This document shows, one piece after another, positions 4,199 to 37,248 of a stretch of DNA of 64,000 nt (the stretch's first letter is position 1; each line of letters starts with the position of its first letter). Under the pieces are notes generated by a model. The model saw only the letters and a program-made list of their open reading frames with translations. It was not told the DNA's origin and did no database searches. The translations under genes and the position numbers were made by a program. Origin of the DNA: an uncultured Syntrophales bacterium (GTDB taxonomy: Bacteria > Desulfobacterota > Syntrophia > Syntrophales > JADFWA01); the NCBI GenBank assembly GCA_964454305.1, contig CAYVXX010000003.1:74-64073 (forward strand). The letters are read 5' to 3'.

Positions 4199-4700
4199 TC
4201 CGGGATAACTAAAACATTACCCGCAGCGACTCAGCAAAGCTGTACCGCTATCCACCGGAGTGAAAGTTGGATGAGAGGCAAGCAGTGTCAATGCCTCAAG
4301 ATATATCTGGTCATTATCATAACTCCCTCTTGTGCCTCAATAATATGCTCACAAACTCTTTAAAAATCTCTCATGCAAAACGTAATAAGTGTTGCGAGCC
4401 GTTTATCGCCACGAACAGTCTTTCGGGAAAAGCCGCGGTTTTTTTCGGAGGAGTTGTTGACCTGTTATTTGGCACATATGTTTTTAATATTGCATTTACA
4501 GGTAAAAATCTCAAACTATTCTTTAAAAACAAGGATTATGTCCCCACCATTTTCCAACAGAAAAATATTCGCGGTTTTTTACCGTTTCTGTTGATTTCTG
4601 AATGATCACGTAATTTAATTTTCATTGAAATTACGCTGATCTGCTGATAGACAATAATTTATTTAAAACATTTTTCTGATATTCCATATGGAGATATTTT

Positions 4701-5840
4701 ATGACGGGCAACATGAAGAAGATCGAAGTTGTTCCGATTCCGAACAGGAAAAAAGATATCAAGCAATTTGTCCTGTTTTCATGGAAAATATACAAAGATA
4801 ATTCATATTGGGTTCCGCCCATCATATCTGACCAGATGAAGTTCATCACCCAAGGCAGCTATCACGATACCGGTGTAATACAAGCTTTTATGGCCTATCG
4901 AAATGGAGACCCTGTAGGTCGCATTATCGCACATTATGACACACGATATAATGCATTATTTCAAAAAGCCCGGGGATGTATTGGTTTCTTCGAATGTGTC
5001 GATGACAAAGAGGTGTCAAGGGCGCTATTCGACACATCCCGAAAATGGCTGGTCGAAAAGGGAATGAATGAAATGTACGGGCCGCTGAATTTCACGAATT
5101 ATGACGCATCCGGGCTGTTAATGGACGACTATGAAAACGACACAGCCCTGGAATTGAATTATAACCTCCCCTATTATACCGAACTCTTTGAAGACTATGG
5201 TTTTCATAAGGTGATTGACTGGTATGCTTATAGATTTACTCGCGATCAGGATCTGCCGGATATAGCGTATAGATTAAAAGAAAGAATAATTAACAACAGA
5301 TCGGGAATCCGTTTTCGAAACGCAGATTTTAAAAATTATTGGGAAGAAGCCCGCAGTATGCTTGGAGTGTTTAACAAGGCATGGGAAGAAAACTGGGGGC
5401 ACCTGCCGCTGACGGAACGTCAATGGCACCATTATGCAAAGGAAGTAAAAACGGTGGCAAAACCCGAATTTGTCATGTTGGCTGAAAAAGAAGGTCAGGT
5501 CATAGGGTACATATTGGCCGTTCCCGATGTTAATCAGGTTCTAAAGCGCATAAACGGTCGACTATTTCCGTTTGGACTATTCAAAATAATATTGGGATTG
5601 AGGAAGATAAACAGGATTAAAATATATCATATGGGGGTCTTGCCAAAATTTCGAAAACAGGGTATTGAAACTTTGTTCATTCTCGAAATCTACGAACGGG
5701 CGAAAAAAAAGGGGTATAAAGAAGCCGATATATCACTCGTTGTAGAAAACAATACGAGCCTTATCCGACTTCTTGATAGATTCGGAGCGGAACGTTATAA
5801 AACTTACCGTCACTTCACCAAGTCTATTGCCGTGAGATAA
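4701..5840 (+). CDS. GNAT-fold N-acyltransferase-like protein
   Basis: 379 aa. C-terminal acyl-CoA N-acyltransferase core (GVLPKFRKQGIETLFILEIYERAKKKGY). GGAG RBS 7 nt before the ATG. Lies 140 nt upstream of the PKS on the same strand. Confidence 0.6.
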   Translation: MTGNMKKIEVVPIPNRKKDIKQFVLFSWKIYKDNSYWVPPIISDQMKFITQGSYHDTGVIQAFMAYRNGDPVGRIIAHYDTRYNALFQKARGCIGFFECVDDKEVSRALFDTSRKWLVEKGMNEMYGPLNFTNYDASGLLMDDYENDTALELNYNLPYYTELFEDYGFHKVIDWYAYRFTRDQDLPDIAYRLKERIINNRSGIRFRNADFKNYWEEARSMLGVFNKAWEENWGHLPLTERQWHHYAKEVKTVAKPEFVMLAEKEGQVIGYILAVPDVNQVLKRINGRLFPFGLFKIILGLRKINRIKIYHMGVLPKFRKQGIETLFILEIYERAKKKGYKEADISLVVENNTSLIRLLDRFGAERYKTYRHFTKSIAVR

Positions 5841-5980
5841 AAGAGCTTTATCGACAGACCGGAGAGTTTGTCTGATGAGATCCTTTTTATCGGGAAGGTA
5901 TTCCCTATATTTTTTGATTGAGCTTCGATCTTTTTCCTGACTCGTTTTTCCACTGCCCTTATTATGGGGAGAATTAAGAT

Positions 5981-8900
5981 ATGATATCTCATGAAGAAGT
6001 CACGCTAAAAGATACAACAGGGCACATCGCCATTGTCGGCATAGGGTGCCGTTTCCCCGGCGGGATTTCTTCACCGGCGTCTTTCTGGGACTTTCTGTGC
6101 AGCGGTGGAGACGGTATTTCCCATGTGCCCGCCGATCGTTGGGACATAAAAACTTTCTATCATCCTGACAGAGAGAAGAAGGGAAAGGTCTACACTCAAA
6201 AAGGCGGCTTCTTAAGCGAGATAGACCGGTTTGACCCTCAATTCTTCGGCATCTCGCCACGAGAGGCTTCCCATATGGATCCGCAGCAGCGGCTACTCCT
6301 GGAAGTTACATGGGAGGCTCTTGAAGACGGTGGAATGGTTCCTGAGAAACTGGCGGGGACAAACGTTGGCGTGTTTGTCGGACTTTTCATGCACGATTAC
6401 GAGAATATCCATACCGCCGCCACCGAACATGCACTGTATGATCCCCATTCGGTAACGGGAATGTCTACCACGATTGCCGCCAACCGTCTTTCCTATGTCT
6501 TCGACTTCAGAGGACCGAGCATGGTGATTGATACAGCCTGCTCTTCATCATTAGTTGCCGTTCATCTGGCATGCCGGAGCCTGCGGGAAAAGGAAACATC
6601 GCTTGCCGTGGCCGGCGGCGTAAACGTATTGATCAAACCGGAGATTGTCATGACCCTCTGTCAGGCTTCCATGCTCTCGCCGGACGGATACTGTAAAAGT
6701 TTTGACGCCCGGGCAAATGGATATGCCCGATCAGAGGGCGCAGGCGTCGTCGTTATGAAACGACTGACCGATGCACTGGCCGACGGTGACCCCATATATG
6801 CCGTTATTCGAGGGAGCGCGGTTAACCAGGACGGGCGCAGTGAAGGGATCACCGTGCCGAGTGGTGATGCACAGAAGGCAGTTGTTCAAGAGGCGCTCCG
6901 GACAGCCGGCGTTGCACCCCACACTGTAAGTTACGTCGAGGCCCACGGGACGGGCACCCCGGTGGGCGATCTTATCGAAGCGGAGGCCCTCGGTACGATC
7001 CTTTCGAAAGGACGATCCAACGAAAACCGCTGCATTGTCGGTTCCGTGAAGAGCAACATCGGTCATACCGAGTCCGCCGCGGGCGTCGCAAGTCTGATCA
7101 AGGTTGCCCTGATGCTGCGACATCACCGGATACCGCCGAACCTCCACTTTGAAACACCTAATCCCGAAATACAATTCGACCGGTTGAAACTGAGAGTGCC
7201 TACGTCACTGGAGACGTGGACAATTGAAGGTAACGCTCCACGGATTGCCGGTATCAACTCCTTCGGTTTCGGCGGGACAAATGCCCATGTCGTTCTCCAG
7301 GAGTTTGATGGTCCCGTAACTCCTGATACCGCAAAGTCGGACAGCTCTAAAAATGCCATATGCCTGGTGCCTCTCTCGGCAAACAGCCAAGAAGCCCTGC
7401 GTGAACTTGCACGCCGGCATTATGAAATGCTCGTGTCTGATACGTCCGGCAGTATGACCCTTTATGACCTCGGATTTACCGCATCACTGTGCAGGGGACA
7501 CCATTCGAAACGTATGACAATCGCGGCCCGTTCTCTGGAGGATTATCGGGAACATCTCGAAGCCTTTTTAAGAGGCGAGAGACGTCCCGGTTTATCTCTC
7601 GGTAGCGCGCGGCACGGTACGAAGCCGAAGATTGCCTTTGTGTTTTCGGGTATGGGGCAGCAGTGGTGGGCAATGGGTCGGCGGTTACTGGAAGAGGAGC
7701 CGGTATTCAGAAACATTATTGATGAGTGCGATGCCCTGTTCGGGCGACACACCGGGGAATGGTCGTTGATTGGTATCCTGACTGCCGACGAGGATCAATC
7801 GAATATTGATGAAACCATGTTTGCCCAGCCGTCTATCTTTTCCATTCAGGTAGCGCTCGCCGGTTTGTTACGTTCCCGGGGCATCGTGCCTGATGCGATC
7901 GTTGGGCACAGCGTGGGAGAGATCGCCGCGGCTTATACAGCGGGTGCGCTCACCCTTGAAGATGCCGTAAAAGTCTGTTATCACCGCAGTCGTCTGCAGC
8001 ATACACTTGCAGGGCGCGGCGCCATGCTCGCAGTAGGCCTTTCGGCGGAGGATGTCGAAAAGCGTTTCGATGTTTTGCTTCAGGATGTCTCCATGGCGGC
8101 GTTCAACAGCCCGAACTCTGTGACCCTTTCCGGCGATAAAAAGACTCTTGAAGAGATTGCGGCTGTACTGGAAGCCGAGAAGGTATTTGGCCGGTTTCTT
8201 AAGGTGGATGTGCCGTATCATAGTCCCTCAATGGATCCTGTCCTTCAGGATCTGGAGGATTCCCTCAGAACGATCACGCCCCATCCTGTTTCCGCGATTC
8301 TTGTCTCGACTGTTACGGGTAAGACCATTGATGGACAAGATATGAACGGTGGGTACTGGTGCCTTAACGCGAGGGAACCGATCCTGTTTCAAGAAGCGAT
8401 GGATGAACTGGTACGTCATGGATGTGATCTTTTTGTAGAGATCGGCGCCCACCCGGTTCTATCTGCCTCCATTATGGAATGTCTTGACAGTGCAGGGATC
8501 AAAGGAATTGTGGTTCCTACTCTTCGACGCGCGCATGATGAGGAGATTTCCATAGCAAGAGTTGCGGGAGAGCTCTACTGCAGCGGTTACCATCTCGACT
8601 GGAGAGAAAGATACGCCGGCGAAGGGAGATTCATAAAGCTTCCCACCTATCCATGGCAGAAAGAGCATTACTGGACGGAATCGGAGGAGTCGCGACAGGC
8701 ACGTACCGGGGAAGGGATGCTATCCGTCAGGATGGGGGTGGGGCCTAAAGCCCACCCGCTTCTCGGTGGCAGGCTGGCGGCGGCTCTGCCGACATGGAGT
8801 GCCTCCATCGATCTCGAAGACCTGAATTATCTAAGAGATCACATGATCCAGGGTTCTATGGTGTTCCCCGGTGCGGGATATGTGGAGATGGCCCTCGCAG

Positions 8901-11900
8901 GGGCCCGGCAAATCAACGGTTATGGTTCGTATGTCCTGGAATCCGTCTCATTTACAGCCCCCCTTATTTTACGGGGCGAGGCGTCACCCATTGTTCAGTT
9001 CGTCATGGAGGGTGATGAAACCTTCTCCGTTTACAGCAAGTCTGCCGATGACAAACAAAGCTGGGTTAAACATGCCGGCGGAAAACTGCGACCGAACGGA
9101 AGAGAAGAAACGCTTCAAACAATTTCCGTATCGGGGATCAGGAAACGATGCAGTGAAGAAATACCGGTTGAGACTTTCTATAATCGTTTTCGAAGCCTCG
9201 GTCTCGACTACGGGCCTGCATTTCGGAACATCAAAACCATATATACGGGTGAAAGGGAGTCTCTCGGTATGATCGAGACAAACACCGACACTGACGGAGA
9301 TGAAAAAACCTATTATCTCCATCCGGCTACCCTTGATGCCTGTTTCCAGCTCCTCGGAGTGCTCTCCCCCGGCGGGACCTTTCTTCCCGTGGGGATCGAC
9401 AGGATAAGCACCTGGTCACGTCCAAACGGACAGATATGGGGGCATGCCCGCCTCGTTGAACAGAGCGGACGCAGGATCAGGGGCGATATCTCCCTTCTTG
9501 ATGATTCGGGGAATATCCTTGTAGAAATTAAGGGGCTTCGCTGTCGCAATATAGAAGAGACGTCGGCGGAATTCCTCGACGACCTCCTGTATCAGTATGA
9601 ATGGCGTTTGACACCTCTGGGTGGTGGTGAGTCGTCATACCGTGACGCCCGCTATTTGCCGGCTCCGGGTCGAATAAAGGCGGGGCTTGAACCTGTCCTG
9701 AAGGAAATCCTCGAGATGTATTCCCGGAAGGAATACTACAGCGTCATCGAACCGAAGCTGAACGCTCTTTGCACGGCATATATTGTGGAAGGCATGCGAA
9801 CCCTCGGCTTTCAATTCGGCGGTCAGGAACCCTTCACCACTGAAGAGTTTTGCAGCCGTTTCGGCATTGCATTGCAACATGGAAAGCTGTGTGAACGATT
9901 ACTGTCCATGCTGGCGAAAGAGGGGTGGCTCAGCGGCAACGGCCGAGAATGGAAAGTTGGAAAGAAACGAAAAGCGACGTCGCCGCAGAAACTCTGGAAC
10001 GCTCTGATGACGGAACACCCCGAATGCCAGGCGGAGTTGATACTGATCGACCGGTGCGGATCGAAACTTGTCGAGGTCCTCCGCGGTGATGAAGATCCTC
10101 TGGGACTGATTTTTGAACCGGGATCGACCGTGGCGGAACACCTGTATTATCATTCACCGACAATGAGAATATACAACCGGCTGTTGCGGGAGCTGATGTT
10201 GACCGTACTTGATCATCTCCCGGAGGGACAGACAATCCGAATCCTGGAAGTTGGTGCAGGTACCGGTGCGGTAACCTCCTTTCTACTTCCCATCCTTCAT
10301 GGGCGACAGGCAGAATACGTGTTTACCGATATATCGAAAACACTCATCAACGCCGCCCAGGAAGCATTCAGGGAATACCCTTTCGTTGAGTTTCGGCAGC
10401 TCGATATCGAAAAGGACCCTGTTGAGCAGGGGTTCGACCCGCACTCGTTCGACCTTGTCATAGCATCCGATGTGGTTCATGCAACGGAGAACCTGCACAG
10501 GACGCTGGACAACATCAAGCCCCTTCTGGCATCGGACGGCCTCGTAATGATGCTGGAGCTCACCAATCCGTCCTACCTGTTTGACCTGATATTCGGTATG
10601 CTCGACGGGTGGTGGCTTTTCTCCGATTACGACCTGCGTCCCGATCACGCGACAATGCCCCGGGCAGGCTGGGAAAATGTTCTCACTCGATGCGGTTTTT
10701 CCGATATTGTCATGATAGACGATCACATTGATGATCACGCACCGACACAATCGATAATTGTTACAAGAGGACCATCGATTGAGCCGCCCCTCACGGAGGG
10801 AGAGATCGGGATTTCGAAAGAAACATCTTCTCAAACGAAGCGACCCTGGTTGATTCTTGCTGACGAGTCAGGTATTTATCAGCAGCTAACCGTAATACTT
10901 GAAGAAAAAGGCATTTTACCTTCAATTATTAAAAGGGGAGATTCGTTTAAAGAAGTCGCACCCCGGTGTTTTACAATTCGTCCCAATGAGCCGGATGACG
11001 TCGAGCAGGCCATAGGCGCTCTGTGTCCTGACGGGGAATCATCGCCCGTAATTATCAATCTATGGAACGCAGAACCAGGCGATACGGTAATGACCGGGCA
11101 ATTATTGGAAGATACAGTTACAAACGCCTGCATGGAGGTTGCCGGGTTCGTTCAGGCACTCAGCAAAAGACCATGGGAAACCGTTCCTGATTTCTGGCTT
11201 GTGACCGGAGGGACACACCCGATAGGAAGTAACAGCGATATCGCATTGAATCAGACACCTCTCTGGGGATTCGGCCGCGTGATCATCACCGAACATCCGA
11301 ATATACGCCTCCGTCTTGTCGATCTGAGCCGGGTTCCGTCTGAAAGAGAACTGGTGAATTTCTGCGAGGAACTCCTTTCCGATAATAGTGAGGACGAGAT
11401 TGCTCTTCGCGGGAGCGATAGATATGTGCACCGCCTTGTGCAGACAACCGGCTGCAGCCGTCCCGATCCTGATGACGACTCTTTTACTCTTCACAAGACC
11501 CGGGCCAAATCTTCAAAGGATTTTTTGGTTATCGAGGCACAGCGGCACGTGCCCGGACCCGGGGAGGTCGAGCTTAAGGTATATGCCACGGGGCTCAATT
11601 TTAAAGATGTGGCCAAGGTATCAGGGCTCCTTGATGATCTTGACGACGATACTCTCTTTTCGCTCGGGATGGAAGCCTCCGGTGTTATTCTCCGTGTCGG
11701 GGAAGGAGTAAAGAATATAAAAGCGGGCGACAGTGTAATGGGGCTTGTTCAAACAGGTTTTTCAAATTATATCGTCACCGACGCGTATGGTCTTGTTCCG
11801 AAACCCGATCATCTTACCTTTGAACAGGCGGCAGGGATTCCCCTTACTTTCATGACGGCATTTCATGCTCTGCATTCTCTGGCGCGGATTCGCGAAGGAG

Positions 11901-14900
11901 AACGTATACTTGTTCATACGGGTTCCGGAGGCCTTGGTCTCGCGATGATACAGGTCGCCCGTGCAGCAGGCGCAGAAGTATATGCGACGGCAGGCACACC
12001 GGAGAAACGTTCCTTTCTCAGGACAATGGGAATTCCTTACGTCGGCGACTCACGAGGCCTCGACTTTGCGAGAGAATTGCCGGAGATGACGAACAACGAA
12101 GGTGTCGATATCGTCGTAAACACGCTCCCCGCAACTGCCCTTGAAGCAAATATCTCCGTCCTGAAACCGGTCAGCGGACGCCTGATCGATCTTGCCGCCA
12201 TTCAATCCCCGGCTTCCCTGGAAATGAGGCTCTTGGGAAAAGGCATATCGATTGCAGCCTTCGATCTTGAAGCGATGAAAAGAAACACCCCCGAATACCT
12301 GGGGTCGTTGCTCCATCAGGTCGCTGATCGCTTCTGTGATAAAACCTTACACCCATTACCGCATCGGGTTTTCCCGGTTACCGATGTTGCGAGGGCCTTC
12401 AGGAATATGAGAAAGGCCAGCCATATCGGGAAACAAATTCTTTCAATGAGAGAAATAAATGTCATTCCTGTTCCCACACAGTCAACACTGTCCCTGAACC
12501 CGGATGCAACCTATCTCATTGCCGGCGGGTTGGGTGGGTTCGGTATGGCGGTTGCCCGCTGGATGGTATTGTTCGGCGCCCGTTACCTCGTACTCGTCGG
12601 ACGGCACAGCGACTCCTCACCCAAGGTGCATGAGGACTTAAAAATCCTTAAAAAATCCGGAGCGACGGTACGGGTCATCCAGGCAGACATTACAAGCGAA
12701 GAGCATCTTAAATCGGTCTTTGAAGAGATAGACCTGACAATGCCACCCTTGAGGGGTGTCGTACAGTCGGCTATGGTACTCGACGACGGTCCTGTAATGG
12801 AAATGACGTCTGACCGGATAAAACGCGTTGTAGCTCCAAAAGTGCAAGGAGCCTGGAATCTGCATATCCTCACGCTGAAAAAAGACCTTGATTTTTTCAT
12901 TTGTTTTTCATCCTTCGCATCTCTTATAGGAAACGCAAACCAGGCGAGCTATTCCGCGGGAAACGCGTTTCTGGATGCGCTGGCCGATTACCGGAAGGCA
13001 CGGGGACTGCCGGCGCTCACTATCTCCTGGGGCGCACTGGGGGAGACCGGGTATGTTGCGGAACATGAAGAAATCAAGGATGCGTTTCGCCGTCAGGGTG
13101 TGACCGGTTTGACACTGGATAAGGCATGGCAGGTTATAAGACATGGATTGAAGCGGGACGTGACACATATCGGCGCTATGTCGGCACACTGGCCGACTTT
13201 GAGCAGGTTTTCATATGCCGTTGCAAATTCTCCGAGATTTTCCGAACTTATCCAAAGAGAGTACGGGAAGGCTGTTGGTGGCGTTTCTGAAACTGAGGAT
13301 CGGATACGAACGACACTTCCCGCTTCCGGTGAAGAGCGCCATAAACTGTTGGAAGAAGTGCTAATACAAGTTGTCTCCCGTGTGCTTGGGTTGTCTCCGT
13401 CCGGAATGGATATCCACCAGCCGTTGAGTTCGATGGGCTTCGATTCTCTAATGGCTGTGGAACTGAGCCTTGCCGTCGAAAATGCCGTCGGGGTTGTCCT
13501 GCCGAAGGTTGAATATCTCAGACGGGATCTGACTGTTGCCGTGCTCGTGAAAGTCATTGAAAAGGGATTGCCGGAAAGCGGGTTCATTGTATACCATGGT
13601 GGCATACAGTCCCGGGTGAAAGATCAGACGGAGGATACGAACGGAGGGGCTGAATCGACCCGATTTATGACGCTGGGTCAAGATAGCTCTCTTTCCGGCG
13701 GCGGCGATCAGCGTCTCCGGGCGGAAGCCGGGAAAAGAGAGGATATTCTATCAAAAGGGAAGGGCAATGTATACGGCTTTGATGGTCAGTCGTTGCCTCG
13801 AGCTGAAGGATTCATATACCCGCCCGAATATCTCGCATTGAAAGAAAACTCTGAACAGCTGGAAACCGGCGGATACAAAAACTTCTATTTCAATATTTCC
13901 GACGGCATTAACAGCAACATTACGAGCATTGAAGGCAGGAAGCTCATCAATTATTCGAGTTACAACTACCTGGGCATGTCGGGAGACCCGGTAGTTGTGA
14001 AGGCGGCCAAGGACGCCATCGATCGCTATGGGACCTCGGTGTCCGCATCCCGTATCGCCTCGGGAGAAAGAATCTTCCACAGGGAACTTGAAAACGAACT
14101 CTCCGGTTTGATAGGCGCCGAGGATTGTATTGCCTTTGTCAGCGGATTCGGGACAAATGAAAACGTGATTGGACACGTATGTCGTCATGATGACCTCGTG
14201 CTCCACGATTCGCTTATCCACGCCAGTGTGCAGCAGGGTGCCACGCTTTCCGGCGCGCGGGTTCTGCCTTTTCCGCATAATAATTATGAGGCGCTGGACC
14301 GGATATTAAATGATCGTAGAGAAAATTATCGGCAGGTCCTCATTGTCATTGAGGGTGTGTATAGTATGGATGGAGATATACCCGATCTGCCGTGCTTCAT
14401 CGAGATCAAAAAGCACCACAAAGCCTTGCTGATGGTCGACGAAGCTCATTCCATAGGGGTGCTGGGAGAACATGGCAGGGGTATTGGTGAATATTACAGT
14501 GTCGATCCCGGTGAAGTGGACCTTTGGATGGGGACATTGAGCAAGGCATTCGCCAGTTGCGGCGGATACATTGCCGGCAGTAGGGATATGGTGGAATTTC
14601 TTAAGTACACCGCCCCCGGTTTTGTCTACAGCGTGGGAATGACACCACCAGACGCTGCGGCAGCTCTGGCGGCGTTGCGTTTACTGAAGAAGGAACCGGA
14701 ACGGGTCACCCGGCTGCAACAAAACATCTCTCTGTTTCGCGAGATGGCTAAAGAGCGCGGTTTCAATACGGGAAAGAGCAAGGATTCCGCCGTGATTCCG
14801 CTTATTCTCGGACAATCGCTGAAATCTATCAGGATGTACAAGCACCTCAAGGAACAGGACATATTCGCGCTGCCTATTGTCTATCCGGCGGTGCCGGAAA

Positions 14901-15007
14901 ATGCGGCGCGCATTCGCTTCTTTCTGAGCAGTCTACACACCGATGAGCAGATTGTAACGACAATCTCGGCAATCTCCGCTGCCCTTTCTGCCGATCCGGC
15001 GTCGTAG
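5981..15007 (+). CDS. type I polyketide synthase fused to an alpha-oxoamine synthase: KS-AT-DH-cMT-(psiKR)-ER-KR-ACP-AOS
   Basis: Uninterrupted 3008-aa ORF with all domain signatures present (see domain features). No loading domain and no thioesterase. GGGGAG RBS upstream of the ATG. Confidence 0.95.
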   Translation: MISHEEVTLKDTTGHIAIVGIGCRFPGGISSPASFWDFLCSGGDGISHVPADRWDIKTFYHPDREKKGKVYTQKGGFLSEIDRFDPQFFGISPREASHMDPQQRLLLEVTWEALEDGGMVPEKLAGTNVGVFVGLFMHDYENIHTAATEHALYDPHSVTGMSTTIAANRLSYVFDFRGPSMVIDTACSSSLVAVHLACRSLREKETSLAVAGGVNVLIKPEIVMTLCQASMLSPDGYCKSFDARANGYARSEGAGVVVMKRLTDALADGDPIYAVIRGSAVNQDGRSEGITVPSGDAQKAVVQEALRTAGVAPHTVSYVEAHGTGTPVGDLIEAEALGTILSKGRSNENRCIVGSVKSNIGHTESAAGVASLIKVALMLRHHRIPPNLHFETPNPEIQFDRLKLRVPTSLETWTIEGNAPRIAGINSFGFGGTNAHVVLQEFDGPVTPDTAKSDSSKNAICLVPLSANSQEALRELARRHYEMLVSDTSGSMTLYDLGFTASLCRGHHSKRMTIAARSLEDYREHLEAFLRGERRPGLSLGSARHGTKPKIAFVFSGMGQQWWAMGRRLLEEEPVFRNIIDECDALFGRHTGEWSLIGILTADEDQSNIDETMFAQPSIFSIQVALAGLLRSRGIVPDAIVGHSVGEIAAAYTAGALTLEDAVKVCYHRSRLQHTLAGRGAMLAVGLSAEDVEKRFDVLLQDVSMAAFNSPNSVTLSGDKKTLEEIAAVLEAEKVFGRFLKVDVPYHSPSMDPVLQDLEDSLRTITPHPVSAILVSTVTGKTIDGQDMNGGYWCLNAREPILFQEAMDELVRHGCDLFVEIGAHPVLSASIMECLDSAGIKGIVVPTLRRAHDEEISIARVAGELYCSGYHLDWRERYAGEGRFIKLPTYPWQKEHYWTESEESRQARTGEGMLSVRMGVGPKAHPLLGGRLAAALPTWSASIDLEDLNYLRDHMIQGSMVFPGAGYVEMALAGARQINGYGSYVLESVSFTAPLILRGEASPIVQFVMEGDETFSVYSKSADDKQSWVKHAGGKLRPNGREETLQTISVSGIRKRCSEEIPVETFYNRFRSLGLDYGPAFRNIKTIYTGERESLGMIETNTDTDGDEKTYYLHPATLDACFQLLGVLSPGGTFLPVGIDRISTWSRPNGQIWGHARLVEQSGRRIRGDISLLDDSGNILVEIKGLRCRNIEETSAEFLDDLLYQYEWRLTPLGGGESSYRDARYLPAPGRIKAGLEPVLKEILEMYSRKEYYSVIEPKLNALCTAYIVEGMRTLGFQFGGQEPFTTEEFCSRFGIALQHGKLCERLLSMLAKEGWLSGNGREWKVGKKRKATSPQKLWNALMTEHPECQAELILIDRCGSKLVEVLRGDEDPLGLIFEPGSTVAEHLYYHSPTMRIYNRLLRELMLTVLDHLPEGQTIRILEVGAGTGAVTSFLLPILHGRQAEYVFTDISKTLINAAQEAFREYPFVEFRQLDIEKDPVEQGFDPHSFDLVIASDVVHATENLHRTLDNIKPLLASDGLVMMLELTNPSYLFDLIFGMLDGWWLFSDYDLRPDHATMPRAGWENVLTRCGFSDIVMIDDHIDDHAPTQSIIVTRGPSIEPPLTEGEIGISKETSSQTKRPWLILADESGIYQQLTVILEEKGILPSIIKRGDSFKEVAPRCFTIRPNEPDDVEQAIGALCPDGESSPVIINLWNAEPGDTVMTGQLLEDTVTNACMEVAGFVQALSKRPWETVPDFWLVTGGTHPIGSNSDIALNQTPLWGFGRVIITEHPNIRLRLVDLSRVPSERELVNFCEELLSDNSEDEIALRGSDRYVHRLVQTTGCSRPDPDDDSFTLHKTRAKSSKDFLVIEAQRHVPGPGEVELKVYATGLNFKDVAKVSGLLDDLDDDTLFSLGMEASGVILRVGEGVKNIKAGDSVMGLVQTGFSNYIVTDAYGLVPKPDHLTFEQAAGIPLTFMTAFHALHSLARIREGERILVHTGSGGLGLAMIQVARAAGAEVYATAGTPEKRSFLRTMGIPYVGDSRGLDFARELPEMTNNEGVDIVVNTLPATALEANISVLKPVSGRLIDLAAIQSPASLEMRLLGKGISIAAFDLEAMKRNTPEYLGSLLHQVADRFCDKTLHPLPHRVFPVTDVARAFRNMRKASHIGKQILSMREINVIPVPTQSTLSLNPDATYLIAGGLGGFGMAVARWMVLFGARYLVLVGRHSDSSPKVHEDLKILKKSGATVRVIQADITSEEHLKSVFEEIDLTMPPLRGVVQSAMVLDDGPVMEMTSDRIKRVVAPKVQGAWNLHILTLKKDLDFFICFSSFASLIGNANQASYSAGNAFLDALADYRKARGLPALTISWGALGETGYVAEHEEIKDAFRRQGVTGLTLDKAWQVIRHGLKRDVTHIGAMSAHWPTLSRFSYAVANSPRFSELIQREYGKAVGGVSETEDRIRTTLPASGEERHKLLEEVLIQVVSRVLGLSPSGMDIHQPLSSMGFDSLMAVELSLAVENAVGVVLPKVEYLRRDLTVAVLVKVIEKGLPESGFIVYHGGIQSRVKDQTEDTNGGAESTRFMTLGQDSSLSGGGDQRLRAEAGKREDILSKGKGNVYGFDGQSLPRAEGFIYPPEYLALKENSEQLETGGYKNFYFNISDGINSNITSIEGRKLINYSSYNYLGMSGDPVVVKAAKDAIDRYGTSVSASRIASGERIFHRELENELSGLIGAEDCIAFVSGFGTNENVIGHVCRHDDLVLHDSLIHASVQQGATLSGARVLPFPHNNYEALDRILNDRRENYRQVLIVIEGVYSMDGDIPDLPCFIEIKKHHKALLMVDEAHSIGVLGEHGRGIGEYYSVDPGEVDLWMGTLSKAFASCGGYIAGSRDMVEFLKYTAPGFVYSVGMTPPDAAAALAALRLLKKEPERVTRLQQNISLFREMAKERGFNTGKSKDSAVIPLILGQSLKSIRMYKHLKEQDIFALPIVYPAVPENAARIRFFLSSLHTDEQIVTTISAISAALSADPAS
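6020..7306 (+). other. PKS domain: ketosynthase (approximate bounds)
   Basis: IAIVGIGCRFPGG, active-site Cys in DTACSSS, EAHGTGTPVGD, KSNIGHTESAAG, GGTNAHVVLQEF. Confidence 0.95.
7627..8560 (+). other. PKS domain: acyltransferase (approximate bounds)
   Basis: FVFSGMGQQW, active-site GHSVGEIAAAY, VDVPYHSPSM. Extender specificity not assignable by eye. Confidence 0.9.
8750..9560 (+). other. PKS domain: dehydratase (approximate bounds)
   Basis: HPLLGG ... HxxxGxxxxP motif as HMIQGSMVFPGAGYVEMAL; later LHPATLDACFQ. Confidence 0.85.
9990..10760 (+). other. PKS domain: SAM-dependent C-methyltransferase (approximate bounds)
   Basis: Motif I ILEVGAGTGAVTSFLL, then DLVIASDVVHAT and GLVMMLEL. Sits between DH and ER as in cMT-containing reducing PKSs. 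Confidence 0.8.
11523..12450 (+). other. PKS domain: enoylreductase (approximate bounds)
   Basis: MDR-type ER: GEVELKVYATGLNFKDV, NADPH site LVHTGSGGLGLAMIQVARAAGAEVYATAG. Confidence 0.85.
12500..13090 (+). other. PKS domain: ketoreductase (approximate bounds)
   Basis: TYLIAGGLGGFGMAVARWM Rossmann motif; catalytic region NQASYSAGNAFLDAL. Confidence 0.85.
13330..13560 (+). other. PKS domain: acyl carrier protein (approximate bounds)
   Basis: Phosphopantetheine attachment motif LSSMGFDSLMAVELS. Confidence 0.85.
13830..14990 (+). other. PKS C-terminal domain: alpha-oxoamine synthase (class II aminotransferase; SPT/BioF/KBL family) (approximate bounds)
   Basis: SSYNYLGMSGDP, GFGTNENV, VYSMDGDIPDL, VDEAHSIG, PLP-lysine motif MGTLSKAFASCGGYIAG. 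Confidence 0.9.
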
Positions 15008-15055
15008 GGTAAGATAGGCATTATTGCAGTACATAACAATTCGGAGAATGAACGT

Positions 15056-15838
15056 ATGTCTAAGGTAGCTGTTATAACCGGAGGTTCCCAGGGCCTGGGG
15101 TTTGCACTGGCCCGTTGTCTTGCACGGGACGGCTATATTCCCGTCCTTCTTGCCCGAACAACTTATATTCTGGAGAACGCGGTTAAAAGTCTTGAAGCGA
15201 TGGGCTATCAGGCTGATTCATATGTCGTGGACATCGCAGACGAGAATGCCATGAGTACGGTGGCCGGTTCGATACGTGACAGATTCGGGACCATTGACGT
15301 TCTCGTCAACAATGCCGGGATCGTTCATACGGAGACCCTCGAAGAGATGAATATCTGTGATATCCGCTACGACCTTGAAGTGAATCTTTTCGGGACGATA
15401 CTTTGCACAAGACAGTTTCTCCCCATGTTGGCAGAGGACGGGAAGATCCTTTTTGTTTCGTCGGGATTCGGTCTTATGGGGCCGGCCGGATATTCGGTGT
15501 ACGCGGCGGCCAAAGCGGGCGTGATCAACTTTGCCGAATCAATAAAAAGAGAGCTTCACAGGCGCAACATTGGTGTGTACGTTGCCGTTCCCTCGGATAT
15601 CGATACACCTGGCTTCCGTAAGGAGCTGGAAGGATTGCCCGAGTGGATGGCCGTTTCCAAGGCCAGGGGAAAGATCCAGTCCCCCAACGCCGTAGCCCGA
15701 GCTATCCTGAAGAAATGCCGGGGAGGCCGGTTCCTTATCTTTACCGACGCTGGTGTGCGGATGCTTCACATCCTCAACAGGGTTTTACCCCGCCGATGCA
15801 GAGACCTCATCCTCGACACCATGTTTCCCAGACCGTGA
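15056..15838 (+). CDS. short-chain dehydrogenase, 3-ketodihydrosphingosine reductase (KDSR/Tsc10)-like
   Basis: VITGGSQGLGFALA, catalytic YAAAKAG. VPSDIDTPGF matches the PPDTDTPGF signature I recall for KDSR-family enzymes. GGAGAA RBS. Lies 48 nt after the PKS stop. Confidence 0.75.
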   Translation: MSKVAVITGGSQGLGFALARCLARDGYIPVLLARTTYILENAVKSLEAMGYQADSYVVDIADENAMSTVAGSIRDRFGTIDVLVNNAGIVHTETLEEMNICDIRYDLEVNLFGTILCTRQFLPMLAEDGKILFVSSGFGLMGPAGYSVYAAAKAGVINFAESIKRELHRRNIGVYVAVPSDIDTPGFRKELEGLPEWMAVSKARGKIQSPNAVARAILKKCRGGRFLIFTDAGVRMLHILNRVLPRRCRDLILDTMFPRP

Positions 15839-15915: not shown

Positions 15916-17631
15916 TCATTCACAGGGCACAGAGTACACGTGCTCGGGTGAAATAAATCTATGGCGGTATTTTAGAGATTCCAAAAGGTCAATCACCATT
16001 TTTGTGTTATATCCGAACTGCCTGATATCGGTTTCCCTTACCTGGAGCAGGAGATTCGGACGAAACCGTTTCAACGTTGCCGTTCCGCCCGTCAATATAT
16101 CGTATCCGGCTCCCCCGGCATGGATTTTTAAGAAATCCAGTTTTTGAATGTTCTGCTCGTTGACGAAATGATCAAGCGTATCAACAAACGTAGGTACTGA
16201 ACAAAAACTGCCGAACTTTGGTTCCTGTCCGTAAGTACTTAAAAAATATTGACCGCTTTCCGGCACGTTCAAAACCCGTTCACCCGACTCATTCAAAATG
16301 CCCGTATTGAATACCCTGACCCGGTTTTCAACATTGTTCAGTTTCAGATTTGATTTCAGGACATCGAAGAGCAGTTCGTGAGGTTCGAAAGCGTAGAAGG
16401 CAGACCCTTCCACGAATTTTGCAACCAGAGAAAAACAGCCCGTGCTTGCCCCGACATCGAAGACAACCGGTCGATCAAATTTTTTCAGCTCATCGTAAAA
16501 AAATCGGATAATTTCTTTGCCCCGCACATCCACTGCCTGAAAAGATGTCCATTCTTTCCCCTTTTTATCGTAGACCATCTCCTTTTCGAAGGCACCGATT
16601 CCGTTATCCCGGAAATCTATAATCACCCGTCTGTCATCCACGAGGGTATATTCCTGTCTCAGGCCCAGACCGGAAACTTCGACGAAGGGAACATTGCCCA
16701 TTACTGCCGCTTCGTAGGAAAAGGTGCTCTGTCTGGTGCCGATCAACTTCTGTGTGTTTGCCAGGAGATACATATCGATTAGTGCATCCTTGTGATCCTG
16801 GAGAGTGAAGCGATTCACCATGCCGTCTGTCGTTTCTTTGGGGTATGTAATTATCCTGTCTTTATATCTTTCAATAAATGTTCGGCACTCTGTGATATTA
16901 TCGGCGGCCAGGAATATCTTTACATCCGGGTTTTTTGTTATCTCCTCGTCTATCAGGGAGGAAAACAGGTCAAATCTCGTTTGTCCGATGGGGCCGTCGG
17001 GACTGCTGTCCCGCTCTTTTGTAAGCCGTTTATAGGTTTTTCGTGTCCTTATGTGCACACCGATGGTGTCATCATGAAAATGGCGGTCAATAAACCGTTC
17101 GTATTGCTCCCGGATATCCCGTGCAGGTACAAACCGCTGATAGATTCGGTGCCGTTTGTTATGAAAATCGATTCCATTTATGGGTTTCCCATGGAAAGAG
17201 TAATAGGATCTGATGACGATCAGGGGAAAGAAAAAGTTTACGTTCTTCGCGATCATGTCGCACAGTATGGTGTTGAATTGATGGTGTGGTGTCAATTCAT
17301 GTCTGATCCAATCGGTGAAACGGAGGATCCTGCGGCCTTCATAAAAGCAGAAAAAGCGCTGAATTCTGTTTAATGCGTCGCGATTCACCGGTGAGGAGGG
17401 CAATTCAGGCATTTCGAAAAGGTCCGAAAAATCACGAATTCCCGGAAGATCTATTAGGTCCCCCCAGTGAAGATAGAAGTCGCGGCTCTCCTCCTCCGCC
17501 ATGAGTATCGCCGAGATCAGACCGCGCAGTTGATTGGCCAATCCGCTGTATAAAGGGGCCTCAAACACGATTGCGTTGTCCAAACCGTCGACTGAAAAGA
17601 ATTTTTTTATAAATTTTCGATTAAACATCAA
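15916..17631 (-). CDS. two-domain protein: fucosyltransferase-superfamily-like glycosyltransferase (N) + FkbM-family methyltransferase (C)
   Basis: N-terminal half: YSGLANQLRGL, IGVHIRTRK, FLAADN, LIDMYLLANTQKLIGTRQSTFS (GT11/23/65-like motif pattern). C-terminal ~190 aa (about 15916-16480): FDVGASTGCFSLVA ... AFEPHELLFDVLKSNLKLN, FkbM type. Confidence 0.55.
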   Translation of the reverse strand: MMFNRKFIKKFFSVDGLDNAIVFEAPLYSGLANQLRGLISAILMAEEESRDFYLHWGDLIDLPGIRDFSDLFEMPELPSSPVNRDALNRIQRFFCFYEGRRILRFTDWIRHELTPHHQFNTILCDMIAKNVNFFFPLIVIRSYYSFHGKPINGIDFHNKRHRIYQRFVPARDIREQYERFIDRHFHDDTIGVHIRTRKTYKRLTKERDSSPDGPIGQTRFDLFSSLIDEEITKNPDVKIFLAADNITECRTFIERYKDRIITYPKETTDGMVNRFTLQDHKDALIDMYLLANTQKLIGTRQSTFSYEAAVMGNVPFVEVSGLGLRQEYTLVDDRRVIIDFRDNGIGAFEKEMVYDKKGKEWTSFQAVDVRGKEIIRFFYDELKKFDRPVVFDVGASTGCFSLVAKFVEGSAFYAFEPHELLFDVLKSNLKLNNVENRVRVFNTGILNESGERVLNVPESGQYFLSTYGQEPKFGSFCSVPTFVDTLDHFVNEQNIQKLDFLKIHAGGAGYDILTGGTATLKRFRPNLLLQVRETDIRQFGYNTKMVIDLLESLKYRHRFISPEHVYSVPCE

Positions 17632-17645: not shown

Positions 17646-19274
17646 TCAGGTGCTAACGATTTTTCCGTCATCGAGCCTGATCACTCGATCCGCAACGGAG
17701 AAATATCGGTCGTCATGCGTGATGACAAGTACCACCTTGTTTTTTCTTTTTAAGTCAATGAGAATTTTTTCGTAAAACTCTTTTTTGAATACGGGGTCCT
17801 GGCCGGCCGCCCATTCGTCGAATATGTAGACGGGCCGGTCTTCCAAGCATGAGGCCAAAAGAGCGAGGCGTTTCTGCTGACCGTAGGAAAGATCGACCGT
17901 TGAAAAGCCTCCGTTTCGAATATGCACCTTTTCATGTAAATTAAGCGTTTTCAGGTAATTTTCCGCGTGATTCTCAATTTCTTCCGGATCAATACCTATC
18001 AGGTATTTAAAAAGGTGATAATCCGAAAAAACGACAGAGAAATTTTGCAAGAATGTTTCTCTGTTGAAATTGTCGACAGGTTCATTATTCCATAAAATTC
18101 GACCTTCTTCCGGAAGATATAAGCCGCAGATGACCTTTGCCAGGGTGGTCTTTCCCGTACCGTTTCCCCCAACAATGAAGGTAAGTTCGCCGCTTTGCAC
18201 TTGAAAGTTTATGGGACCTACGACGAACCTGTCTCCATTCAGCTCATCTTTATACTCAAATTTAATATCTTCCAGCTTCAACTTATAAGAACCCCTTTGT
18301 GGACTTTCCTTTAACGGGGCGTTTTCGCTCCGTTCGGAGTCCGTATTAAACAAATCAAAGCCGTACGTCTGGATTTTTTCCAGAGCGACATTCACATTCA
18401 TCCACTGAGGGATAAAGGACAGAAGGGTTGCCAGAGGTGATAGCGAAAATAATGCGGCAAGGATAAACCCGGTCAGCAGGTGTGGTTTCACCTCAAAAAA
18501 TATTGGTACAAGGAATAATAAACATCCGATATTCGCCAGTATAAGAAGGTCTCCGAATCGCTGGGATATGACGTAAATGGATTTGGCACTGATATTCTGG
18601 TTCATAAGCGCTCGATCGGTAGCGTGAAGGTGGAGAGTTAAAAAATCCTGCCGCTTCCGGTGGTGAAGGAACAACTCTTTGAGACCCTCGGCTAAACTCC
18701 GGTATTGTTTTATCATGTCGTCCGTTATTTCCCTTGATTTCGCCAGGAATCTTTTTGCTAAATTGGAAGGTATTTTAAAAAGCAGGATCGCGACCATCAG
18801 AAAACAGATATTGAACAGGAAAAGGGGCGGCGATAACCATAACATGTATCCGTAACAACCAAAAACGATGGCTATATTGATAAAAGCATTCGGCAGTCTT
18901 CCGACAAAACTCGTTATGGACGTAATATCTTCTACGAGAATTGCGAAGAGGCGATGAGTCCCTATCTTTTCCAGTTCCCTGAGTTCTTTTGTAAAAATCT
19001 GATGGCTGAGGGCCAGTTTTAATTGAAAGGCAATTTTCTCGGAAAGACGTATCAGCAGGAATTCCGAAAGGATACAAAGGCCGCCATAAATGAGCCACAA
19101 CAAGACAAAGGCAAGGAGAAGCTTATAATAGTTGACGGTATCCGCATTCCCGTCAAGGGTCCTGTGAATTACCGCCATCATTCCGGACAACCCGAATCCC
19201 GAAACCAGGCCCACAATAACAGAATAAATGAGGGTCTTCTTTCCGTATTTAAGGATGAATTTGAAAAAGGACAT
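17646..19274 (-). CDS. fused permease/ATPase ABC exporter (cyclic-peptide/SyrD-PvdE-like family)
   Basis: Six predicted TM helices, then Walker A GGNGTGKTT, signature LSYGQQKRL and Walker B VYIFDEWAAGQD. Start placed at MSFFKF (19274); the ORF track extends to 19337. Confidence 0.8.
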   Translation of the reverse strand: MSFFKFILKYGKKTLIYSVIVGLVSGFGLSGMMAVIHRTLDGNADTVNYYKLLLAFVLLWLIYGGLCILSEFLLIRLSEKIAFQLKLALSHQIFTKELRELEKIGTHRLFAILVEDITSITSFVGRLPNAFINIAIVFGCYGYMLWLSPPLFLFNICFLMVAILLFKIPSNLAKRFLAKSREITDDMIKQYRSLAEGLKELFLHHRKRQDFLTLHLHATDRALMNQNISAKSIYVISQRFGDLLILANIGCLLFLVPIFFEVKPHLLTGFILAALFSLSPLATLLSFIPQWMNVNVALEKIQTYGFDLFNTDSERSENAPLKESPQRGSYKLKLEDIKFEYKDELNGDRFVVGPINFQVQSGELTFIVGGNGTGKTTLAKVICGLYLPEEGRILWNNEPVDNFNRETFLQNFSVVFSDYHLFKYLIGIDPEEIENHAENYLKTLNLHEKVHIRNGGFSTVDLSYGQQKRLALLASCLEDRPVYIFDEWAAGQDPVFKKEFYEKILIDLKRKNKVVLVITHDDRYFSVADRVIRLDDGKIVST

Positions 19275-19506
19275 ATCCGGTACCGCCTTGGTAGCTCCGT
19301 AAGTGAAAATCCTTAAACACCCGGACTTCCACGCCACGGTATTTTACTCGAAGTCATTAAAAATGTGCAAGAGATAATCGGAAGCATATGACGGCTTCAA
19401 AGCTATCCGTTCATATTTCCTCCCAGTTTAAGATAATGGGCTTGACCTGATTGCTATAGAGGGTTAAAAGAAAAAGTTAAATTATGGGACAACTTTTTCA
19501 TGTGAA

Positions 19507-20460
19507 ATGATGAAACTCTTTAACCCCGAAATGCCGGTCGATATCGTTTACACCTGGGTGGATGGCAACAGTGAGTCATACCGGTCACTTTATAAGCGAT
19601 ATGCCAAAAAAAACGAAGATCTGAATCCTGAACGCTATCGTGATGTCTACACCATGTTGAGGTATAGCCTGAGGTCTATTGAAAAATATATCCCATGGTA
19701 TCGGAATATCTATATAATAACTCAGCGTCCCCAAGTGCCGGATTGGCTGAAACTCCCTCATCCTCAAGTCAAGGTCATTCACCATGATGAGATTTTCGAT
19801 TCAGAATACCTGCCGACGTTCAATTCAAATGTCATTGAAAGCTACATTCACCGGATTCCCGATTTATCCGATTATTTCCTCTATCTCAATGACGATTTCC
19901 TCTTCGGCAGAGAGACCTTTAAGGGTGATTTTATTACGAATGAAGGGAAAATCAATATCTTTGGGACTCTTTTCGGGGAACGTTTGAAATTCAGGGTTTA
20001 CGATACCAGGTGGAATATCTTTTCTTACGGGTTTGTCGAGCATACACCGTTGTTCATCTGTAAAAAGGCCTGGGAATTGATGTTATCTGAGCAAAAAGAA
20101 GAAGTACATAAAACCCGGCTCAACAGGTTCCGTACAGATTATGATCTCGCCATGGATAAACTTTACCGGTATTATATGCTTTCAAAAATGAGAAATTACT
20201 CCCGGGCGGTTCCTGCACTCGAAGTTTTGAAATATCATCGCTTTCATAAGATTACAAACGGTGTGACCGGACAGAAAAAAGGGATTGACAGGCTGAAAAA
20301 GATGAGGCCCAAATTCTATTGTCTCAATGATGATCAGCGTCAAAATCCTAATGAAACCGTCGTCAGGCTTGTTAAAAATTTCTTGGACGAAAACTATCCT
20401 GAGCCGTCCTCATTTGAACTGAACAGCGAGCGCATTCCCCGCTGCTTGCGGCGGGGTTAG
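19507..20460 (+). CDS. Stealth-family hexose-1-phosphoryltransferase
   Basis: Stealth conserved regions: CR1 VDIVYTWVDGNSESY, CR2 LRYSLRSIEKYIPWYRNIYIITQ, CR3 YLNDDFLFG. The last ~16 codons lie inside a repeat element. Confidence 0.85.
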   Translation: MMKLFNPEMPVDIVYTWVDGNSESYRSLYKRYAKKNEDLNPERYRDVYTMLRYSLRSIEKYIPWYRNIYIITQRPQVPDWLKLPHPQVKVIHHDEIFDSEYLPTFNSNVIESYIHRIPDLSDYFLYLNDDFLFGRETFKGDFITNEGKINIFGTLFGERLKFRVYDTRWNIFSYGFVEHTPLFICKKAWELMLSEQKEEVHKTRLNRFRTDYDLAMDKLYRYYMLSKMRNYSRAVPALEVLKYHRFHKITNGVTGQKKGIDRLKKMRPKFYCLNDDQRQNPNETVVRLVKNFLDENYPEPSSFELNSERIPRCLRRG

Positions 20461-20530: not shown

Positions 20531-20568
20531 AAGTAGGCGGCCTGTTGTTCCGGGTACTCATACTACGA

Positions 20569-21270: not shown

Positions 21271-21317
21271 ATAGCCGGTTAAGCAAACTCTTCATGACAA
21301 TTTTGTGGAGTATGTAA

Positions 21318-23709: not shown

Positions 23710-23712
23710 GGT

Positions 23713-36069: not shown

Positions 36070-36073
36070 ACGC

Positions 36074-37201: not shown

Positions 37202-37248
37202 AACGTTTCGACCTGTCGTATATTTTATTTATTTTATCAAGACCGCAC

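Follow-up and report, generated by a model that had tools for sequence, protein, structure and literature searches.

The DNA analysed here, a 64,000-nt stretch of contig CAYVXX010000003.1 from an uncultured Syntrophales bacterium (hereafter the window), carries three open reading frames (ORFs) on the plus strand between positions 4701 and 15838. In order, these encode a protein of the GNAT fold, a 3,008-amino-acid (aa) protein in which a highly reducing type I polyketide synthase (PKS) runs into a C-terminal alpha-oxoamine synthase (AOS) and, after gaps of 140 nt (GNAT to PKS) and 48 nt (PKS to SDR), a short-chain dehydrogenase/reductase (SDR). A preliminary description of this DNA had put the three ORFs and both gaps exactly where we find them, and had read the large ORF as ketosynthase (KS), acyltransferase (AT), dehydratase (DH), C-methyltransferase (cMT), enoylreductase (ER), ketoreductase (KR) and acyl carrier protein (ACP) domains followed by a class II aminotransferase domain in place of a thioesterase. 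Pfam and motif inspection bear out this reading (Table 1): a Pfam scan found no thioesterase domain in the 3,008-aa protein, and all of the catalytic signatures that we looked for by motif inspection are intact. These include the TLSKAF string that holds the lysine binding pyridoxal 5′-phosphate (PLP), present as GTLSK2855AF; this lysine together with H2746, D2819 and H2822 aligns with the serine palmitoyltransferase (SPT) of structure 3A2B. Given the E-values of the domain matches and their position on one uninterrupted 9-kb ORF, the architecture is far beyond what chance would produce. A single-module reducing type I PKS that lacks a thioesterase is also what is found in the SgaAB(C)-type clusters described below.

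The fusion of PKS and AOS is genuine. The identical 3,008-aa product was called in three separate assemblies (ERZ27248953, with the window as contig k141_686174; ERZ27248939, on a 118-kb contig; and JGI 3300028156, on a 72-kb contig), and at least 20 contigs carry the neighbouring GNAT gene. Fusion is also seen, at full length, in three diverged homologs with 63% (P0122), 60% (P0123, of locus L001) and 55% (P0124) identity (related proteins and loci are given here by P and L numbers), and these share flanking genes with the window. In each of the four fused proteins ACP and AOS are joined in frame by a linker of ~45–95 aa that varies in length and sequence, and the GC content at third codon positions (GC3) is uniform across the junction (ACP 0.54, linker 0.52, AOS 0.59) and does not leave the range seen in neighbouring genes. 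Taken together, these findings exclude for practical purposes an assembly chimera, the concern that the preliminary description had raised about this junction.

Relatives in which PKS and AOS are split are informative about how the two parts may work together. In these the start of the AOS gene overlaps the stop of the PKS gene by 8 nt (P0184/P0018 and P0218/P0019; positions 17811–17818 of L002), the PKS ends in a tail of the form ..EVDSLLxSLLxEK, and the AOS begins with ..KRQLLKQLLR... These tails look like docking helices; both are lost in the fused proteins, which have the flexible linker instead. The overlap and docking-like tails of the split form and the linker of the fused form imply a direct hand-over from ACP to AOS in both arrangements. 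The gene order PKS, AOS, SDR is kept in fused relatives (P0123/L001 and P0124) as well as in split ones (L002, L013, L035 and P0180).

Over 390 aa the AOS domain shares 53% identity (378 bits) with PfSgaB of Pseudomonas fluorescens MYb115, for which we took the query sequence from the supplement of PMC12134224. Among solved structures its best match is the Sphingobacterium SPT (3A2B; 254 bits), followed by a Thermus KBL/BioF enzyme (7POA; 226 bits), human SPTLC2 (225 bits) and E. coli BioF (174 bits); PfSgaB itself reaches at best 193 bits against solved AOS structures. The top-scoring NCBIfam model is that of bioF (TIGR00858), but the score of 347 bits falls short of the equivalog cutoff of 426, and no biotin-synthesis gene is present among the ORFs annotated in the window. 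In a neighbour-joining tree of 28 sequences the window AOS, PfSgaB and all carrier-protein-linked AOSs form one family, with 52–74% pairwise identity, that a long branch parts from canonical SPT (31–37% identity). Within this family the AOSs of the window and of the fused protein of L001 are sister to those that partner split PKSs with a cMT (L002 of Latescibacterota, L013 of Acidobacteriota, and L035), and PfSgaB groups with the AOS of a Bordetella locus (L089; 74% identity). More than 100 alignment columns are invariant between PfSgaB and the window AOS, including the motifs GTSVSASR, DEAHS and GTLSK. The comparisons support the view that the terminal domain is an AOS of the kind that forms sphingoid bases and not a BioF; the link to lipids that the preliminary description had drawn stands, as does its expectation that a phylogeny would place the domain outside the BioF clades. 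Npun_R3567, the subject of a paper reporting that it is not an SPT, is a stand-alone BioF-type protein outside the SgaB-type family.

The iterative type I PKS of P. fluorescens MYb115 is PfSgaA; PfSgaB is a stand-alone AOS with SPT activity that is strictly specific for L-serine, and PfSgaC an SDR proposed to resemble 3-ketodihydrosphingosine reductase (KDSR); PfSgaAB(C) have been shown experimentally to make C24–C28 sphinganines and phosphoglycerol sphingolipids, and 6,101 sgaAB-like clusters, mostly from Burkholderia, have been reported (Peters et al. 2025, PMC12134224). We consider it likely that at this locus the PKS-dependent route to sphingoid bases typified by PfSgaABC occurs in a fused, C-methylating variant. 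Judging from its domains and their intact motifs, the single module would assemble a saturated acyl chain with methyl branches on the ACP that it carries (Ser2489); like PfSgaA it most likely does so by iteration. The PLP enzyme at the C-terminus (Lys2855) would then condense the ACP-bound acyl thioester in cis with an amino acid, most probably L-serine by analogy with PfSgaB, with decarboxylation, and so release the chain as a 2-amino-3-keto long-chain base, as its identity to PfSgaB and the shared active-site motifs suggest. The SDR would reduce the 3-ketone to the amino-alcohol, as synteny that is conserved and a motif like that of KDSR suggest, and fold and co-occurrence point to the tandem GNAT as the enzyme that would N-acylate or N-acetylate the amine. 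By their adjacency, an FkbM-family methyltransferase and an ABC exporter may tailor and export the product. What the sequence shows in this scheme is domain content, motifs, homology and synteny; iteration, chain length, methyl count, choice of amino acid, whether reduction precedes acylation, the GNAT donor, and what the end product is and does are inferred.

Table 1 Features of the window. E-values are from Pfam; pnt, phosphonyl-tailoring; AEP, aminoethylphosphonate; PEP, phosphoenolpyruvate.
Feature	Position	Strand	Basis or remark
Tandem-GNAT N-acyltransferase-like gene, 379 aa	4701-5840	+	Pfam GNAT; AF2 model
Fused highly reducing type I PKS with terminal AOS, 3,008 aa	5981-15007	+	KS-AT-DH-cMT-ER-KR-ACP-linker-AOS
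KS domain	6023-7306	+	PF00109/PF02801, 4e-97; DTAC187SS, H322GTGT, NIGH362
AT domain	7637-8542	+	PF00698, 2e-73; GHS644VG
DH domain	8753-9562	+	PF21089/PF14765, 8e-41 and 9e-19; H954xxxGxxxxP, D1119xxxQ
cMT domain, apparently active	9701-10699	+	PF18558 + PF08242 (HTH_51 + Methyltransf_12), 5e-20; ILEVGAGTG, DVVH1500AT
ER domain	11555-12442	+	PF08240, PF00107, PF13602 (ADH_N/ADH_zinc_N); HTGSGGLG
KR domain, B-type (LDD)	12506-13042	+	PF08659, 3e-64; GGLGGFG, LDD2267, K/S/Y2324/N (Y2324xxxN)
ACP domain	13358-13552	+	PF00550 (PP-binding), 4e-10; GFDS2489L
Low-complexity ACP-AOS linker	13568-13810	+	in place of the docking-like tails of split relatives
SgaB-type AOS domain, PLP Lys2855, proposed chain-releasing step	13811-15007	+	similarity to PfSgaB; Aminotran_1_2 at aa 2654-2997, 8e-43
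Classical SDR, 260 aa, proposed 3-keto reductase (KDSR-like)	15056-15838	+	PF00106
FkbM-family methyltransferase, possible tailoring enzyme	15916-17631	-	PF05050, TIGR01444
ABC exporter (fused transmembrane and nucleotide-binding domains), possible exporter/flippase of the product	17646-19337	-	TIGR01194; adjacency only
Stealth protein	19507-20460		pnt set, directly beside the PKS cluster
LicD	20569-21270	-	PF04991
NTP transferase	21318-22064		pnt set
PEP mutase fused to PF12804 cytidylyltransferase	about 22048-23709		motif EDKRFPKMNS; TIGR02320, 333 bits (cutoff 319.55)
Split phosphonopyruvate decarboxylase (Ppd)	23713-24764		136 + 193 bits
AEP aminotransferase	24761-25831		PhnW-AepZ, 348 bits (cutoff 360.8)
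Fatty acyl-AMP ligase-like enzyme, 595 aa, possible starter/second-chain partner	45761-47548	+	best NCBIfam match PRK09192, 398 bits, below cutoff

The preliminary description had thus got the chemistry of a polyketide route to a sphingoid-type base largely right and overstated its novelty. It knew of no characterised bacterial lipid made in this manner, which is exactly what PfSgaABC (2025) provide. AOS-type domains in assembly lines of PKSs and fatty acyl-AMP ligases (FAALs) were catalogued bioinformatically in 2013 (PMC3870968) and are abundant in sequence searches. What is new relative to the Sga system is the covalent fusion, an apparently active cMT, a conserved tandem GNAT and a different SDR lineage; the route itself is already known.

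The PKS portion appears to differ from the Sga type in both lineage and domain content. For PfSgaA we used the PKS of the Bordetella locus as a stand-in; its KS-AT region is 41% identical to that of the window, as against 53–58% for the split PKSs of the cMT clade. The Bordetella PKS has no methyltransferase Pfam match and no S-adenosylmethionine (SAM) motif, and L083 likewise is without cMT motifs, whereas the clade of the window keeps SAM motif I and most of its members keep the histidine of DV[LV]HAT. An active cMT is therefore apparently a real difference from Sga-type PKSs, and methyl-branched chains are predicted. The AT specificity motif is VPYHS in the window and V[PI][YF]HS across the cMT clade, compared with YAFHS in Bordetella; because the motif of the clade departs from the canonical HAFH or YASH, the choice of extender unit cannot be read from it.

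The SDR gene directly follows the AOS in every relative of the cMT clade, fused or split, and the catalytic residues of its product are intact (TGGSQGLG, NNAG85, S135 and Y149AAAK). The protein is 30% identical over 228 aa to human KDSR (E = 4e-31), and the DIDTPGF string that the preliminary description had recognised as the KDSR signature is present, with PSDIDTPGF standing opposite PPDTDTPGF of the human enzyme. The segment P-x-D-x-(D/E)-T-P is kept in all of the AOS-adjacent SDRs examined and is missing from PfSgaC. In phmmer comparisons with human KDSR the window SDR reached 89–91 bits, fungal TSC10 (8JAT) 104 bits and PfSgaC 40 bits. A KDSR function thus appears well supported by context and motif, and the score leaves membership of the KDSR family undecided; an AF2 model built from the single sequence (pLDDT, the predicted local distance difference test score, of 42) was unusable. 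Two cyanobacterial SDRs encoded immediately downstream of AOS genes, those of Microcystis sp. LSC13-02 (L016, 11281–12030; 228 bits) and Nostoc minutum NIES-26 (L034, 11193–11915; 200 bits), score twice as high against human KDSR as 8JAT does. On these scores some cyanobacteria clearly carry KDSR orthologs of the eukaryotic type in AOS clusters.

For the upstream gene, the Pfam GNAT match covers aa 223–362, in the C-terminal half (7e-11), the repeat that carries the acyl-CoA motif, and sequence matches to the PDB are weak. An AlphaFold model from a 43-sequence alignment (pLDDT 93.5; predicted template-modelling score 0.90) consists of two GNAT folds in one chain, in agreement with the GNAT fold given in the preliminary description, which had noted that bacterial ceramide synthase uses this fold, and Foldseek matched it to 7Q3A (E = 3e-15, TM 0.63–0.70) and further to 2WPW, 5KF1 and MshD. 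The best fold matches (MAB_4324, the clavulanate tandem GNAT, glucosamine N-acetyltransferase and mycothiol synthase MshD) are all amine N-acyltransferases. The family is large and uncharacterised and comprises proteins of ~372–376 aa (3,461 matches), with members in metagenome-assembled genomes of Latescibacterota, KSB1, Spirochaetes and Eisenbacteria. Orthologs with 52–67% identity adjoin the fused clusters of L001 and of the P0124 locus and, divergently, the split cluster of L012/L013. Homologs with 31% identity abut genes for FAAL-ACP-AOS proteins in Pirellulales (L022) and Gemmatimonadaceae (L057); the latter locus also encodes a phosphopantetheinyl transferase, a PAP2 homolog (31%) between the AOS and the GNAT, and a GT4 glycosyltransferase, and contains no PKS. 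Since the GNAT accompanies the AOS where there is no PKS, we argue that it serves the AOS or its amine product and not the priming of the PKS. Upstream of the GNAT gene lies a small ORF (4267–4605; 112 aa from a TTG start) with no Pfam match; on other contigs it was called as 86 or 104 aa, its start varying between assemblies of the same population.

At least 595 relatives of the window AOS turned up in a scan of genomes in which each species had one, and we took architectures from the best 80. These come from Planctomycetota, Cyanobacteria, Acidobacteriota, Myxococcales, Nocardia, Bordetella and Thiomargarita, with a highest identity of 63%. Single ORFs of ~1,150 aa with the order FAAL-ACP-AOS are dominant, in Planctomycetota of the Pirellulales (L014, L015, L019, L022, L024–L026, L028, L029, L032, L036 and others). 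ACP-AOS didomains occur in cyanobacteria, and split pairs of PKS and AOS, with or without a cMT, are also seen, as are other fused forms: KS-AT-DH-ER-KR-ACP-AOS (L080), KS-AT-KR-DH-AOS (L021) and KS-AT-AOS (L079). No characterised FAAL-ACP-AOS member was found in the literature searched. Searched exhaustively with HMMER for the ACP-linker-AOS region, 1.84 billion cluster representatives yielded 4,736 matches at E ≤ 1e-30; about 44 of the 150 best representatives are at least 2,000 aa long with the AOS at or near the C-terminus, and the four long representatives scanned with Pfam were all without a cMT. The fused form with a cMT amounted to four proteins in a search of 5.8 billion proteins. By these counts a PKS ending in an SgaB-type AOS is common and almost always uncharacterised, and a rarer sub-variant combines the fusion with a cMT. 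A metagenome scan with the window AOS added nine loci, all at 56% identity or less.

Several observations weigh against a C-methylating variant of the Sga pathway. The PKS appears not to be specifically related to Sga-type PKSs; its KS-AT region is closer to those of myxobacterial modular PKSs (46–48%) than to that of the Bordetella stand-in. The window SDR is only 23% identical to PfSgaC and not its ortholog, and it matches human KDSR no better than it matches FabG-like PDB entries (100–107 bits). The GNAT lies within 10 kb in only 4 of the 80 related genome loci. Sequence does not reveal amino-acid specificity, iteration, chain length or how many methyl branches are made, and the whole cMT clade, this locus included, is known from sequence alone. 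Finally, an FAAL ortholog (78% identity) that adjoins the GNAT gene divergently in L001 gives a hint that chain synthesis could start from a ready-made fatty acid.

This last point raises the question of whether the PKS is iterative. In an alternative scheme, which we regard as unlikely, the FAAL would load a fatty acid, the module would add one or a few methyl-branched, fully reduced C2 units, and a 4-methyl-branched base would be released. Besides the ortholog in the closest fused relative and the FAAL gene in the window itself, the dominance of the FAAL-ACP-AOS architecture in the AOS family would fit this scheme, as would a Nostocaceae locus (L030) with a cMT-containing PKS beside a FAAL-ACP-AOS. 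However, the PKS begins with the KS and has no N-terminal ACP on which the FAAL could load, the window FAAL is 30 kb away, no FAAL lies within 10 kb in the split relatives L013 and L035, and the monomodular PfSgaA is reported to be iterative (PMC12134224). The fate of the product is a separate matter, and here a reading that we hold to be possible, if somewhat doubtful, is that the same core chemistry gives a secreted sphinganine analogue, N-acetylated, FkbM-methylated and exported, comparable to the backbones of fungal fumonisin, AAL-toxin or sphingofungin, and not a membrane ceramide. Fumonisin is made by Fum1, a highly reducing PKS with a cMT and the same domain order, together with Fum8 and Fum13 as AOS and KDSR-like counterparts. 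KDSR homologs are found in the fumonisin and sphingofungin clusters, and Peters et al. class the Sga sphingolipids as secondary metabolites (PMC12134224). The distribution of the system across phyla is patchy, the nearest GNAT folds are acetyl-CoA-using N-acetyltransferases, and the adjoining ABC exporter belongs to TIGR01194 ('cyclic peptide export'; 433 bits against a cutoff of 286), a subfamily typical of the export of nonribosomal peptide synthetase (NRPS) and PKS products. Pointing instead to a membrane lipid, the neighbourhood is rich in envelope and head-group genes (glycosyltransferases, PAP2_3, LicD, myo-inositol-1-phosphate synthase and a CDP-alcohol transferase), the AOS, GNAT, PAP2 and GT4 of L057 make up a compact lipid-like set, and the products of PfSga occur in cells as phosphoglycerol sphingolipids (PMC12134224).

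Use of alanine or glycine by the AOS, which would give bases of the 1-deoxy-sphingoid type that cannot carry a head group at C1, seems to us distinctly unlikely. In its favour, identity of the domain to PfSgaB is only 53%, the two fall in different clades, and specificity is not legible in the sequence. The fungal Fum8 uses alanine. In anoxic waters 1-deoxyceramides are abundant (PMC11334938). The only characterised member of the family is nevertheless strictly serine-specific, and the columns invariant between PfSgaB and the window include all active-site motifs. It is very unlikely that the GNAT is a chain-initiation decarboxylase, like the loading domains of CurA and SxtA, that primes the PKS: its gene is immediately upstream of the PKS, and GNAT and AOS do co-occur in SxtA, which has the order MT-GNAT-ACP-AONS, but its fold is a tandem GNAT nearest to amine N-acetyltransferases and not a single GNAT_L domain, and its homologs stand beside FAAL-ACP-AOS genes where there is no PKS to prime (L022 and L057). 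A terminal BioF or KBL without a link to lipids, or a fusion created by assembly, is effectively refuted. The window is a metagenome contig, bioF is the top NCBIfam model, and automatic annotation at JGI names homologs '8-amino-7-oxononanoate synthase'; against this stand the bit scores, the missed bioF cutoff, the gene context, the three assemblies, the fused homologs with shared neighbours and the uniform composition of the junction, all given above.

Comparison with known systems sets out what is shared and what is not. In PfSga, as in the window, a monomodular reducing type I PKS feeds an SgaB-type AOS and an SDR is found in the cluster. There, however, PKS and AOS are separate proteins, the products are unbranched and no methyltransferase is mentioned, and PfSgaC is encoded five genes away (PMC12134224) and belongs to a different SDR lineage, whereas in the window PKS and AOS are one polypeptide with an apparently active cMT and the adjacent SDR carries a motif common to human KDSR. 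The PKS lineages also appear to differ, as judged from the Bordetella proxy, and the window has, unlike PfSga, a tandem GNAT and an FkbM methyltransferase as conserved partners. The order of the proposed chemistry is also that of fungal sphinganine analogues: in the fumonisin, sphingofungin and myriocin pathways the methyl-branched product of a highly reducing PKS (KS-AT-DH-cMT-ER-KR-ACP) is joined to an amino acid by an AOS, and reduction by a KDSR-like enzyme comes next. Those pathways, which we liken to the window by description only, are eukaryotic and use separate proteins.

In PigH, RedL and SxtA a C-terminal AOS acts in cis on an ACP-bound acyl chain, as we propose for the window (embedded Aminotran_1_2; PMC3870968). 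These proteins have non-reducing or minimal modules and short or medium chains that lead to pyrroles or the saxitoxin core, whereas a long-chain base is proposed for the window; KS-AT-AOS proteins of the L079 type resemble them more than the window protein does. The ceramide route of Caulobacter, with Spt, bCerS and CerR, shares the overall chemistry of AOS condensation, N-acylation and 3-keto reduction (PMC11087976), but takes its acyl donor from fatty-acid synthesis as acyl-CoA or acyl-ACP. Spt is a stand-alone enzyme ~31–37% identical to the window AOS, and CerR is NDUFA9-like, periplasmic and acts after acylation, whereas the window reductase is a classical SDR of the cytoplasmic type. The FAAL-ACP-AOS proteins of Planctomycetota and Cyanobacteria (for example Synechococcus B1XHP8), with AOS domains 54–62% identical to that of the window, follow the same ACP-tethered logic and have occasional tandem-GNAT neighbours, but derive the chain from an activated free fatty acid and not from a PKS.

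If our reading is correct, the PKS-dependent route to sphingoid bases, shown once so far, in Pseudomonas, reaches beyond host-associated Proteobacteria to uncultured environmental lineages and extends to methyl-branched backbones. The AOS has been welded onto its synthase repeatedly in evolution. The pool of ACP-dependent, SgaB-type AOSs runs to thousands of matches with a single characterised member; dozens of clusters at 50% identity are PKS-AOS or FAAL-ACP-AOS fusions, from Planctomycetota, Cyanobacteria, Acidobacteriota, Myxococcota and Actinomycetota. Possible uses lie in assigning producers to unusual environmental sphingolipids and in compact, one-protein catalysts for sphingoid-base analogues.

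Among the neighbouring genes, that for the FkbM-family methyltransferase has an ortholog (64% identity) in the same position after the SDR in L001; the N-terminal ~370 aa of the window protein gave no PDB or Pfam match. Beyond the exporter, positions 19507–25831 are, by gene content, a complete phosphonyl-tailoring (pnt) set for aminoethylphosphonate (AEP). Clusters of this type have been described for surface phosphonoglycans and phosphonolipids, with an acceptor yet to be identified (Rice et al. 2019, PMC6697681). We considered whether the AEP genes are conserved members of the PKS-AOS cluster and found the idea unsupported, as PepM, Ppd and the other AEP genes occur, among 101 loci, only on the contig of the window. 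A single pathway that joins all of these genes is speculative, and we give it little credence: a methyl-branched base made by the PKS would be reduced, N-acylated by the GNAT, given an AEP head group from CMP-AEP by transferases of the LicD, Stealth or PAP2 type, and flipped by the ABC protein. The product in that case would be a polyketide-derived sphingophosphonolipid, and to our knowledge this would be the first proposed genetic route to bacterial phosphonosphingolipids and the first acceptor for a pnt cluster.

Further along, an NTP transferase is fused, unusually, to a domain of the class I/II aminotransferase fold (29795–31642, minus strand). Two GT1/GT4 glycosyltransferases come next, and then a PAP2_3 protein (34028–34918), of a family that contains sphingomyelin and inositol phosphorylceramide synthases. 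An envelope and export run on the minus strand (34930–44896) encodes two FtsX/MacB-type permeases, LPG_synthase_TM, a UDP-glucose dehydrogenase, an epimerase, an ABC ATPase with a fused cyclic-nucleotide-binding domain, HlyD and an efflux protein of the outer membrane. Directly downstream of the FAAL gene are a Slam gene (47611–49035) and, immediately after it, a gene for a protein of 853 aa that has a TbpB-like beta-barrel and a FecR domain (49070–51631), a pair that looks like Slam with a substrate lipoprotein.

The PKS gene has a GC content of 0.53, above that of its flanks, but its GC3 of 0.555 is within the window range of 0.39–0.61, and we rejected a horizontally transferred or compositional island. 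Promoter and terminator scans around the three genes gave counts within the expectation from shuffled sequence and were uninformative. On the minus strand, a myo-inositol-1-phosphate synthase gene (53662–54774) lies beside one for a CDP-alcohol phosphatidyltransferase (55049–55675), which suggests a capacity for inositol phospholipids or inositol-phospho-lipid head groups.

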